Assembly (NCBI RefSeq): GCF_013167455.1
Contig: NZ_CP038328.1
Direction: 5' to 3' (one strand)
DNA length: 64,000 bases
Origin: Escherichia coli O157:H7
GTDB taxonomy: Bacteria > Pseudomonadota > Gammaproteobacteria > Enterobacterales > Enterobacteriaceae
The notes under the pieces are model-generated. The model did no database searches. It saw only the letters and a program-made list of their open reading frames with translations, and was not told where the DNA came from. Positions within the stretch are counted from its first letter, which is position 1, and every line of letters starts with the position of its first letter. Both the position numbers and the translations under genes were made by a program. Positions 19,198 to 21,155 of this stretch are shown here, piece by piece.

Positions 19198-20250
19198 ATG
19201 AAAAAGACCCGTACAGCCAATTTGCACCATCTTTATCATGAACCCTTACCCGAAAACCTGAAGCTCACGCCGAAGGTCGAAGTGGATAATGTTCATCAAC
19301 GACAGACAACGGATGTCTATGAACATGCTTTAACGATTACCGCCTGGCAGCAGATTTACGATCAGCTGCATCCGGGCAAGTTTCATGGTGAATTTACGGA
19401 AATTCTACTCGATGATATTCAGGTTTTTCGTGAATACACCGGTCTGGCGCTGCGTCAGTCGTGTCTGGTCTGGCCGAACTCGTTCTGGTTTGGCATTCCG
19501 GCGACGCGCGGTGAGCAGGGATTTATCGGTTCGCAATGTCTGGGAAGCGCAGAAATAGCGACGCGCCCTGGTGGAACCGAGTTTGAATTAAGTACGCCGG
19601 ACGATTACACGATCCTGGGCGTAGTGCTTTCTGAAGATGTCATCACCCGTCAGGCTAACTTTTTGCATAATCCGGATCGGGTATTACATATGTTGCGTAG
19701 CCAGTCGGCGCTGGAAGTGAAAGAGCAGCATAAAGCCGCGCTGTGGGGCTTTGTCCAACAGGCGCTGGCGACGTTTTGCGAGAACCCGGAAAATCTCCAT
19801 CAGCCTGCAGTGCGAAAAGTGCTGGGGGATAATTTGCTAATGGCGATGGGGGCGATGCTGGAAGAAGCGCAGCCAATGGTGACGGCGGAAAGCATCAGTC
19901 ATCAGAGTTACCGTCGGTTGCTTTCCCGCGCCCGTGAATATGTGCTGGAAAACATGTCCGAACCGGTGACGGTGCTGGACTTGTGTAATCAACTGCATGT
20001 CAGCCGCCGCACGCTACAAAACGCGTTTCACGCTATTTTAGGAATTGGCCCGAACGCGTGGCTGAAACGCATTCGCCTGAACGCCGTACGCCGCGAACTG
20101 ATAAGCCCGTGGTCGCAAAGCACAACGGTAAAAGACGCCGCCATGCAGTGGGGATTCTGGCATCTGGGGCAATTTGCCACGGATTACCAGCAGCTGTTTG
20201 CCGAGAAGCCGTCGTTGACGTTGCATCAGCGGATGCGGGAATGGGGGTGA
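19198..20250 (+). CDS. eutR: EutR, AraC-family activator of the eut operon
   Basis: 350-aa ORF with C-terminal AraC-type HTH; last gene of operon. Confidence 0.9.
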
Positions 20251-20255
20251 GGGAG

Positions 20256-21155
20256 TTACACCCAATCCCTGACCTTAATAAACTCACTTAACGCCGCTTC
20301 TGGGCTGCCATCTTTTGGCTGATAATCATACTCCCAGCGTACCAGTGGCGGCATTGACATCAGGATCGACTCGGTGCGCCCGCCAGTTTGCAGGCCAAAC
20401 AGAGTGCCGCGATCCCAGACCAGATTGAACTCGACATAACGACCGCGACGGTAGAGCTGAAAATTGCGCTCGCGCTCGCCGTAGGCCATCGCTTTACGTC
20501 GCTCTACAATTGGTAAATAAGCGTCGGTGTAGCCTTTGCCTACCGCCTGCATAAAGGCAAAACAGTGGTCGAAATCTGGCGTGTTTAGATCATCAAAGAA
20601 CAGCCCGCCAATACCGCGCTGTTCGTTGCGATGTTTGAGGTAGAAGTAATCGTCGCACCACTTTTTGTAACGGGGATAAACGTCTTTACCAAATGGCAGG
20701 CACAGGTCACGGGCGGTGCGGTGCCAGTGAATGGCGTCTTCTTCAAAACCATAGAAAGGGGTTAAATCGAAGCCGCCGCCAAACCACCAGACTGGCTCTG
20801 CACCCGGTTTTTCGGCAATAAAAAAGCGCACATTCGCGTGGCTGGTGGGAACATACGGATTATGCGGATGCACTACCAGAGAAACGCCCATCGCCTCGAA
20901 ACTGCGCCCGGCAAGTTCCGGGCGATGAGCGGTGGCGGAAGCAGGCATCGCCTCGCCGTGGACGTGAGAAAAGTTGACGCCTGCCTGTTCGAAAACACCA
21001 CCATTACGCAACACCCGACTACGCCCGCCGCCGCCACCTTCGCGCTGCCAGCTATCTTCGACAAATTCTGCGCCATCGACGGCGGTCAGCTGCTGACAAA
21101 TCGTATCCTGAAGGTTGAGCAGAAACTGTTTAACCTGGTGTGCGTCGGGTTTCAT
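20256..21155 (-). CDS. hemF: oxygen-dependent coproporphyrinogen III oxidase
   Basis: 299-aa [26 protein letters not shown]...; convergent with eutR, only 5 bp between stops. Confidence 0.95.

Follow-up and report, generated by a model that had tools for sequence, protein, structure and literature searches.

Short overlaps between convergent genes were reportedly described by Johnson and Chisholm in 2004, and Rho-dependent termination of read-through and antisense transcripts in Escherichia coli is said to have been described by Peters et al. in 2012. E. coli has 75 convergent overlapping pairs, among which short overlaps with shared stop codons (TTAA, CTAG and the like) are a recognised kind (Huvet & Stumpf 2014, PMC4161906), and antisense positions form the largest class of mapped Rho termination regions, 51.5% of all (Adams et al. 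2021, PMC7815308). At arfA/mscL the convergent 3' ends overlap, and a stem-loop in the 3' coding sequence of the small gene is complementary to the 3' UTR of its partner, with spacing that varies across Enterobacterales; both the regulatory effect and the processing by RNase III have been demonstrated by experiment for this pair (Morra et al. 2023, PMC10070815). Ju et al. 2019 and Wang et al. 2022 (bioRxiv 10.1101/2022.10.23.513370) also describe overlapping bidirectional terminators between convergent E. coli genes, Rho-independent hairpins without U tracts whose effect is strongest when expression is high.

A sequence-only reading of the window, a stretch of 64,000 nucleotides from E. coli O157:H7, had placed three very tight convergent junctions in it, and they lie exactly where that reading put them, with ends that are those of the RefSeq/PGAP annotation. 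The stop-to-stop distances, read directly from the sequence, are a 5-bp gap for eutR/hemF, a 4-bp overlap for ypeB/yfeH and a 10-bp overlap for yfeR and a gene encoding a FlxA-like product. The tested stretches of the window are 100% identical to E. coli O157 NZ_CP022050.2, for which PGAP gives the same gene ends. eutR (19198-20250, + strand, 350 aa; open reading frame list and RefSeq) is the final gene of the eut operon, which is intact in the O157 strain as 17 uninterrupted genes (RefSeq annotation). Its TGA stop (20248-20250) is separated by the 5-bp spacer GGGAG (20251-20255) from that of hemF (20256-21155, - strand, 299 aa), the second gene of amiA-hemF, whose TAA reads as TTA on the + strand at 20256-20258. 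ypeB (44945-45163, + strand, 72 aa, PF12843) starts 2 bp past the ligA stop and ends in TAA at 45161-45163, while yfeH (45160-46158, - strand, 332 aa, an SBF-like transporter) ends in a TAA that is the reverse complement of 45160-45162. The TTAA at 45160-45163 is thus common to both genes and contains both stop codons, which makes the pair a textbook member of the short shared-stop overlaps with no difference from them. yfeR (46248-47174, + strand, 308 aa, LysR family), divergent from yfeH, stops at TAG 47172-47174, and the FlxA-like gene (47165-47506, - strand, 113 aa, PF14282) ends in TGA with its final 10 bp, TCAGATATAG, within yfeR. A fourth tight pair, absent from the earlier reading, is cysM/yfeK, where the stops at 35380 and 35383 are 2 bp apart and yfeK is a frameshifted pseudogene in the O157 window.

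Tight junctions occur here at the normal rate of the genome and are not unusual. In a sample of six 50-kb pieces (300 kb) from elsewhere in the same genome, 7 of the 30 intact CDS/CDS convergent pairs (23%, 95% CI 12-41%) have a gap of at most 5 bp or an overlap, four of them overlapping; other overlaps of 4 bp in the O157 genome include those of bfr with a prepilin peptidase gene, of arfA/mscL and of a kinase/response-regulator pair. Within the window, three of eight intact convergent pairs are tight (4/10 when pseudogenes are counted), and no enrichment over the sample was found (Fisher P = 0.35 for intact pairs and 0.26 with pseudogenes; binomial P = 0.28). The arrangement is not special, since about one in four convergent pairs of the genome look alike. 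We consider it likely that these are ordinary compact tail-to-tail junctions of the enterobacterial chromosome and not a dedicated device. Reading from sequence can raise many such junctions per genome, and each deserves low weight by default.

With so few base pairs between the stops (at most 5), any 3' end must fall within the opposing gene. An intergenic terminator would have no room, so that RNA polymerase would run on into the opposing gene and transcribe it in antisense. Beyond each stop the RNA lies opposite a coding sequence, is hence untranslated and, being C-rich as well, would allow Rho to load and to halt transcription a few hundred nucleotides further on. The maximum excess of C over G per 78 nt past the stop is 21 for hemF, 23 for eutR and 18 for yfeH, the background of the window being 13.9 +/- 3.7, and the C>G stretches past these three stops lie at or above the 90th percentile of the window, which is supportive of Rho. 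The 3' ends would afterwards be trimmed back to small hairpins, and the short sense/antisense overlap would be tolerated, with RNase III removing the duplex RNA.

Published K-12 data place such stops ~0.5 kb past hemF and ~0.8 kb past yfeH. On the hemF strand a Rho termination region at 2554640 (Rho score 4.5, p 9e-8) lies antisense within eutR, 516 nt beyond the stop codon of hemF, and on the yfeH strand another, at 2528751 (score 6.7, p 1e-6), lies antisense within ligA, 807 nt beyond that of yfeH (Adams et al. 2021, Supplementary file 2, PMC7815308); as the scores derive from 800-nt windows with low read counts (55-113), these positions are approximate. Neighbouring convergent pairs in K-12 are alike, cysM running into yfeS and yfeX into yfeW (PMC7815308). 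By coordinate mapping, region 2554640 corresponds to 19715-19740 of the window (- strand, inside eutR antisense), which borders on a small hairpin (GCGGC-UUUAU-GCUGC) that has UCUUUCACUU after it, with a terminator-like scan match at 19739-19725 on the - strand. Region 2528751 corresponds to 44330-44353 (- strand, inside ligA antisense), which on folding adjoins a hairpin followed by AUAUUCUUUUU, with a scan match at 44345-44330 on the - strand. Both Rho positions thus lie at, or no more than ~10 nt from, a hairpin with a U-rich motif on the correct strand. No Term-seq 3' end is called in K-12 at the eutR/hemF or ypeB/yfeH junction (Adams et al. 2021, Supplementary file 1, PMC7815308), the SMRT-Cappable-seq supplements hold no rows for these genes, the terminator scan returned a canonical intrinsic terminator at none of the three junctions, and an Rfam scan of the window gave no RNA family at any of them.

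These data suggest that the two loci are of the same kind as other Rho-terminated read-through in E. coli, the hemF to eutR and yfeH to ypeB-ligA antisense transcripts having bicyclomycin-sensitive stops. They do not differ in kind from the regions of Adams et al. 2021 (PMC7815308), in which both appear as table rows without individual discussion. The Rho data are from K-12 and cover transcription that leaves hemF and yfeH, two directions out of six; eut is uninduced there and the FlxA-like gene is missing from K-12. We infer that the other four directions behave like these two strands and that O157 behaves like K-12 at these junctions, which would presumably have no selected regulatory role. 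The claim that transcription terminates inside the opposing gene accordingly stands on structural grounds at all three junctions and on K-12 Rho data in two directions, whereas the accompanying statement that terminators are lacking proves too strong at ypeB/yfeH, where a conserved hairpin and U4 tract lie within ypeB. The sequence-only reading is essentially right, but what it describes is already documented in E. coli: tight or overlapping convergent ends, Rho stops in the opposing gene and occasional antisense cross-talk. The context gained here is that the tightness of eutR/hemF is an Escherichia-specific state and the other two overlaps are ancient; on sequence comparison, the three junctions differ in origin.

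The ypeB/yfeH overlap is kept in Salmonella, Kosakonia, Enterobacter and Klebsiella sp., and the shared TTAA is, judged by this distribution, old and conserved across genera. Folding and conservation together mark ypeB codons 57-68 (45113-45147, - strand) as a candidate yfeH terminator. The hairpin, AGGGGCUG..CAGCCCCU at 45120-45147, is followed on the yfeH strand by CGGUUUUAAU and lies 13 nt past the yfeH stop; its folding energy is -17.5 kcal/mol on the + strand (z -3.7) and -15.9 kcal/mol on the - strand. Both the stem and the A4 tract are nucleotide-invariant in five genera while the loop varies, and 8 of 10 synonymous codons in the hairpin are codon-invariant, rare GGG and CCC among them, compared with 6 of 42 in the rest of ypeB (Fisher P = 1.4e-4). 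Covariation is uninformative, as all stem pairs are invariant in the five-genus alignment. The hairpin has a 3-nt spacer and only four U, and it is not present in a more distant syntenic contig (L081), which has a longer called ypeB/yfeH overlap. YpeB has 894 relatives at E <= 1e-3, the distant ones being of limited use (L083 and L084 are non-syntenic; the contigs L082, L085 and L086 are short or prone to errors). We regard the hairpin with its A4/U4 tract as a candidate embedded yfeH terminator, a new detail at this locus that probably helps to end yfeH transcripts and is a potential case in which a terminator limits codon choice in the gene opposite it. Its synonymous-site constraint would mean that at least one junction has a selected nucleic-acid element, so that the absence of special function may fail for some of the three.

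At eutR/hemF, an imperfect inverted repeat, GGGAATGGG..CCCAATCCC, spans both stop codons (20237-20269) and folds on both strands, at -16.6 and -13.4 kcal/mol (z -2.35 and -1.84). A U tract is lacking, and the arms, which consist of the final codons of EutR (REWG*) and HemF (RDWV*), are degraded in other Escherichia clades. The gap is also 5 bp in K-12 and is 5 bp in four Escherichia loci, with spacer bases that differ in other clades. By comparison, it measures 54-150 bp and holds REP palindromes in 23 loci of Citrobacter, Klebsiella, Salmonella and Pseudocitrobacter (one to three palindromes in the first three genera), and the spacing reaches 1.8 kb among the non-Escherichia genera examined. 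Pluralibacter (8 bp) and Intestinirhabdus (19 bp) are still tight outside Escherichia, and E. whittamii, unlike other Escherichia, has the relaxed arrangement; the apparent gaps of two loci (L042, L044) are artefacts of eutR frameshifts, the L042 junction being 5 bp. Each E. coli genome has the REP palindrome at 40 sites or more, and REP/BIME elements lie in convergent spacers such as those of eutR/hemF in the sister genera and of cysM/yfeS in K-12, but none lies between the eutR and hemF stops in E. coli. The E. coli junction is tight because these repeats are absent. From these alignments, the 5-bp gap is specific to Escherichia, most sister genera having REP-filled spacers, and its constant length with changing sequence across Escherichia could reflect constraint and not a mere lack of insertions and deletions.

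The yfeR/FlxA-like junction coincides with the edge of a strain-variable segment (47175-47176; K-12 alignments and annotation). Identity to K-12 runs to one base past the yfeR stop, after which K-12 has xapR-xapB-xapA-yfeN instead of the FlxA-like gene. The FlxA-like form is found in 1316 of 5426 E. coli genomes, so that 76% are without the pair; BL21 is a strain that has it. This break could be taken for a recent rearrangement that created the overlap, a view ruled out by the FlxA-like homologues of Kosakonia, Enterobacter and Klebsiella sp., which share 46-50% identity and retain the overlap of 10 bp as well as the DIYI at the C terminus. Presence in these three genera makes the overlap ancestral and the xap-yfeN form of K-12 and Salmonella derived. 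By this comparison the overlap is old and was lost in K-12-type strains and in Salmonella on replacement by xap-yfeN.

The hairpins raise the question of whether transcripts end much sooner than the Rho positions indicate. Intrinsic terminators embedded in the last codons of the opposing gene, ending transcripts within tens of nucleotides while Rho clears the leakage, are a possible account, though a doubtful one. The invariance of the ypeB stem and A4 at synonymous sites, the fold across the eutR/hemF stops and a hairpin of -18.3 kcal/mol in the K-12 yfeN/yfeR spacer would all fit it. However, K-12 reads continue ~800 nt past the yfeH stop and ~500 nt past that of hemF in a bicyclomycin-sensitive manner, with a Term-seq end called at neither the eutR/hemF nor the ypeB hairpin (PMC7815308); the eutR/hemF hairpin, with no U tract, is unconserved in other Escherichia clades, the short spacer and few U of the ypeB hairpin and its absence from L081 count against it, and the yfeR/FlxA-like junction has no stable fold (z -0.5 and +1.1). 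Hairpins that can form on both strands lie at eutR/hemF and in ypeB, and these, with no U tract at eutR/hemF, liken the convergent pairs to the overlapping bidirectional terminators described above. Converging polymerases would then pause at a shared hairpin and be dislodged by head-on and trailing collisions. We think this improbable, as collision needs heavy traffic from both sides and expression of the genes here is low, at tens of reads per 800 nt, with eut uninduced in standard media; moreover, eutR/hemF and ypeB/yfeH differ from those elements in that termination is bicyclomycin-sensitive on the hemF and yfeH strands and the hairpins lie within coding sequence.

It is about equally improbable, on our analysis, that the tight ends exist because read-through down-regulates the neighbour, as selected cis-antisense regulation would have it, with an induced eut operon silencing hemF-amiA or ligA-ypeB silencing yfeH. 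The precedent is arfA/mscL (PMC10070815), itself a 4-bp overlap in the genome sample and alike in its convergent overlapping 3' ends and in the stem-loop within the 3' coding sequence of the small gene; it differs in that its regulatory effect is experimental, whereas the three pairs here are known from sequence and published K-12 RNA data. Sense/antisense pairing does occur at hemF: a 21-nt duplex generated by RNase III from both strands was captured with p19 inside the gene in K-12 (Huang et al. 2020, PMC7373196, Table S3), and it matches the window exactly at 20835-20855, perfectly paired on both strands and ~585 nt past the eutR stop. Conservation of the ypeB/yfeH and yfeR/FlxA-like overlaps across genera and the intact eut operon of the O157 strain would also suit a regulatory role. 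Yet p19 duplexes are ~38-fold less dense at 3' overlaps than at 5' ones (PMC7373196), eutR/hemF is relaxed in E. whittamii and in all non-Escherichia genera examined save Pluralibacter and Intestinirhabdus, most E. coli genomes have no yfeR/FlxA-like pair, and the junctions occur at the genomic base rate; a literature search on hemF, eutR and antisense returned nothing relevant. A narrower form of the idea is that, with the REP spacer absent, nothing would block transcription at the end of the eut operon in EHEC, in which case induction by ethanolamine and B12 in the gut would run into hemF-amiA antisense and lower both oxygen-dependent haem synthesis and amidase expression. We hold this to be less probable again; if true, it would couple ethanolamine use to the aerobic haem pathway in an excludon-like manner specific to Escherichia. 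Least credible of all is an annotation artefact, in which the FlxA-like reading frame or ypeB is not real, or has a mis-called end, and there is no true overlap. Both genes are small and uncharacterised, and the Pfam alignment of the FlxA-like product spans residues 15-92 only, but the stop codons are unambiguous given the frame, the match of YpeB to PF12843 runs end to end (E 4e-29) and the protein has its many relatives, the FlxA-like product matches PF14282 (E 2.7e-13) and has the overlapping homologues described above, and a sigma-28-like promoter (47561-47535) lies 28 nt upstream of the FlxA-like start. All six products, moreover, have a Pfam or annotated family as expected of real genes, and YpeB, YfeH, YfeR and the FlxA-like product score above curated cut-offs and have orthologues in other genera. 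Ordinary compact junctions with Rho-dependent stops in the opposing gene remain the reading that we prefer.

At cysM/yfeK, K-12 has ~960 bp more than the window, made up of yfeS and a spacer with REP sequences. The window carries an IS3-family insertion of 1313 bp that is missing from the reference record. A match to the ALIL pseudoknot, at first sight an oddity within tnpB, lies at the frameshift site of this element itself and was set aside.

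The stop codons of three convergent gene pairs in the window nearly touch or overlap, with exactly the spacings that the sequence-only reading had given. The eutR gene (19198–20250, + strand) ends in TGA and is separated by the 5 bp GGGAG from the end of hemF (20256–21155, − strand), whose TAA stop is read from TTA at 20256–20258. The ypeB (44945–45163, +) and yfeH (45160–46158, −) genes overlap by 4 bp in the palindrome TTAA, within which both stop codons lie, and yfeR (46248–47174, +) shares the 10 bp TCAGATATAG with a gene for a 113-residue FlxA-like product (47165–47506, −). 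YpeB, YfeH, YfeR and the FlxA-like product each match their own Pfam family above the curated cut-offs, and the four are therefore taken as genuine genes whose stops are unambiguous. A fourth such junction, formed by cysM and the pseudogene yfeK, had been overlooked; their stops lie 2 bp apart (35380/35383) because ~960 bp of the K-12 cysM-yfeK interval (two REP elements, yfeS and flanks) is missing in O157 (35380–35750). The O157 yfeK carries a frameshift (A7 versus A8 run) and an altered C-terminus.

Tight junctions are no commoner in the window than expected by chance. Its 10 convergent pairs have gaps of 5, 57, 2, 42, −4, −10, 117, 39, 49 and 139 bp, negative values being overlaps. With "tight" defined as a gap of ≤5 bp or an overlap, 3 of 8 intact pairs qualify, versus 7 of 30 intact CDS/CDS convergent pairs (23%; 95% CI 12–41%) in six arbitrary 50-kb pieces of the same genome (Fisher P = 0.35, binomial P = 0.28). 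The seven background pairs are fimZ/sfmF, soxS/pdeC and acrS/yhdU, each with a 2-bp gap, a kinase/response regulator pair, bfr/prepilin peptidase and arfA/mscL, each overlapping by 4 bp, and yrdB/yrdA, overlapping by 25 bp. Across E. coli, 75 convergent overlapping pairs have been counted (Huvet & Stumpf 2014, PMC4161906).

Consensus scans found no intrinsic terminator at any of the three junctions. The argument that transcripts have to terminate within the opposing gene is sound and is supported by published K-12 data for the two directions assayed, hemF and yfeH, and these data are informative for O157 because the 5-bp eutR/hemF gap and the TTAA overlap of ypeB and yfeH are the same in both strains. 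Bicyclomycin-dependent Rho termination regions were reported at K-12 position 2554640 on the hemF strand, antisense to eutR and 516 nt beyond the hemF stop (Rho score 4.5, p 9e-8), and at 2528751 on the yfeH strand, antisense to ligA and 807 nt beyond the yfeH stop (Rho score 6.7, p 1e-6); the same holds for cysM/yfeS and yfeX/yfeW, two convergent pairs nearby (Adams et al. 2021, PMC7815308). The Term-seq tables of that study contain no 3′ ends near the eutR/hemF or ypeB/yfeH junction, which is what Rho-dependent ends that are weak and heterogeneous would be expected to give. The two Rho positions map to 19740 and 44353 of the window (both − strand), each coinciding with, or lying no more than ~10 nt from, a small hairpin with a trailing U-rich run, flagged on the same strand by our scan (19739–19725 and 44345–44330). 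This proximity, we infer, fits Rho-terminated RNAs that are trimmed back to a hairpin. Downstream of the stops the RNA is rich in C and poor in G, a composition that is supportive only. The likely mechanism is ordinary Rho-dependent termination of read-through RNA that is not translated, the small hairpins presumably marking the resulting transcript ends.

A perfectly paired RNase III product, of which both strands were captured, is known from hemF (Huang et al. 2020, PMC7373196, Table S3). This duplex maps to 20835–20855, within hemF and ~585 nt beyond the eutR stop, and since it was caught from both strands, antisense RNA over hemF exists, with eutR read-through as a candidate source. In this strain all 17 eut genes form one unbroken run from eutS to eutR (5554–20250). 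The eut operon of K-12 is interrupted by the CPZ-55 prophage, so that eut-driven read-through into hemF can be properly studied only in strains such as this one.

An EutR scan of one genome per species yielded 63 loci, in 34 of which hemF is the convergent neighbour; one of these (L044) was left unscored as its eutR is frameshifted. The gap is 5 bp at four Escherichia-type loci, with varying spacer bases (GGGAG, ATAAA, GGTAA), 8 bp in a Pluralibacter MAG, 19 bp in Intestinirhabdus, 54–150 bp at 23 loci of Citrobacter, Klebsiella, Salmonella and Pseudocitrobacter, and 425–1784 bp at four loci, Escherichia whittamii among them. The 54–150-bp spacers are REP palindromes, one of which recurs at at least 40 places in every E. 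coli genome; the tight eutR/hemF junction is thus an Escherichia-specific state from which the REPs are absent. In E. coli a hairpin (−16.6 and −13.4 kcal/mol) bridges the junction; it is made of the last codons of EutR (REWG*) and HemF (RDWV*) and is degraded in other Escherichia clades, for which reason we do not count it among selected elements. Because the two C-termini are alike (R-E/Q-W-G/A* and R-D-W-V*; 20236–20272), their terminal codons make up an inverted repeat on either side of the spacer in every genus examined; this symmetry is probably a chance product of the protein sequences. Extra DNA of 0.4–1.8 kb lies between the stops in E. whittamii (L011, 5059–6844) and at three further loci (L030, L032, L034). 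The MAG 'Citrobacter sp. HRGM_Genome_0066' holds two eutR-hemF loci in one bin (L008 and L040), one of which has the 5-bp gap and is 100% E. coli-like, whereas the other is of Citrobacter type and has a REP spacer of 54 bp; contigs of E. coli and Citrobacter have probably been combined in a chimeric bin.

Salmonella, Kosakonia, Enterobacter cloacae and Klebsiella sp. RIT-PI-d all keep the 4-bp ypeB/yfeH overlap, and a sixth lineage probably shares it. Inside ypeB, 13 nt beyond the yfeH stop, the hairpin AGGGGCUG..CAGCCCCU folds on the + strand with −17.5 kcal/mol (z −3.7) and on the yfeH strand with −15.9 kcal/mol; in the latter orientation it is followed by CGGUUUUAAU. In the five genera compared, no nucleotide differs in the stem arms or the A4 tract, while the loop codons vary. 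Among amino-acid-invariant degenerate codons of ypeB, 8 of 10 are codon-invariant in codons 57–68 versus 6 of 42 elsewhere in the gene (Fisher P = 1.4e-4), the rare codons GGG and CCC being among the invariant ones. The hairpin is plausible as an embedded terminator or a 3′-end-protecting structure for yfeH; it is non-canonical, K-12 reads run beyond it, and it is not present in a more distant syntenic contig. The synonymous-site constraint on this hairpin is the only modestly new item.

At the third junction, K-12 and O157 agree up to one base beyond the yfeR stop and then part, xapR-xapB-xapA-yfeN (4.6 kb) standing in K-12 where O157 has a ~410-bp FlxA-like segment; the K-12 yfeN/yfeR spacer is 38 bp with a hairpin of −18.3 kcal/mol. 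Kosakonia, Enterobacter and Klebsiella sp. carry a FlxA-like gene (46–50% identical) that overlaps by the same 10 bp and keeps the C-terminal DIYI, and Salmonella has yfeN plus a ~20-bp remnant of the FlxA-like 3′ end, so the overlap is ancestral and the K-12 form derived. Of 5426 complete E. coli genomes, 1316 have the FlxA-like form, BL21(DE3) and O157 among them. Two alternative lysV-yfeR forms are seen in E. coli (window 47175–47590; 3330–7930 of the K-12 locus, L005). Next to xapR, K-12 has a ~65-bp direct repeat of the lysV 3′ end and terminator that resembles a duplicated attachment site. A putative promoter, TCAAGTTC-N11-GCCGATAT (47535–47561, −), lies 28 nt upstream of the FlxA-like ATG; nowhere else does the 64-kb window match the sigma-28 (FliA) consensus TAAAGTTT-N11-GCCGATAA with ≤3 mismatches, and this suggests a flagellar class 3 gene like K-12 flxA. 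The site comes directly after the terminator of the valU-valX-valY-lysV tRNA operon (47596–47620).

The antisense interference envisaged in the sequence-only reading is possible at these junctions; the proven precedent is arfA/mscL (PMC10070815), in this genome itself a −4 overlap like ypeB/yfeH. Three findings speak against selection for such a role, at least at eutR/hemF and yfeR/FlxA-like: the frequency of tight junctions matches the genomic base rate, the eutR and hemF stops stand further apart in nearly all other genera examined, and 76% of E. coli genomes are without the FlxA-like gene. The phenomenon is already known, and the loci are undiscussed rows in published tables.

The intervals 19000–21500 and 44500–48500 match E. 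coli O157:H7 chromosomes at 100% identity, and the gene order of the window runs tkt/tal, eut operon, hemF-amiA, cys/pts genes, ligA-ypeB-yfeH-yfeR and glk/fry. Relative to the reference record NZ_CP022050.2 there are a few SNPs and one 1313-bp IS3-family insertion (~50587–51900) in an IS200/IS605 tnpB gene, with orfA at 50638–50964, orfB at 50964–51851 and a full-length ALIL frameshift pseudoknot at 50919–51035. As the otherwise near-identical reference record is without it, this insertion serves as a strain marker.
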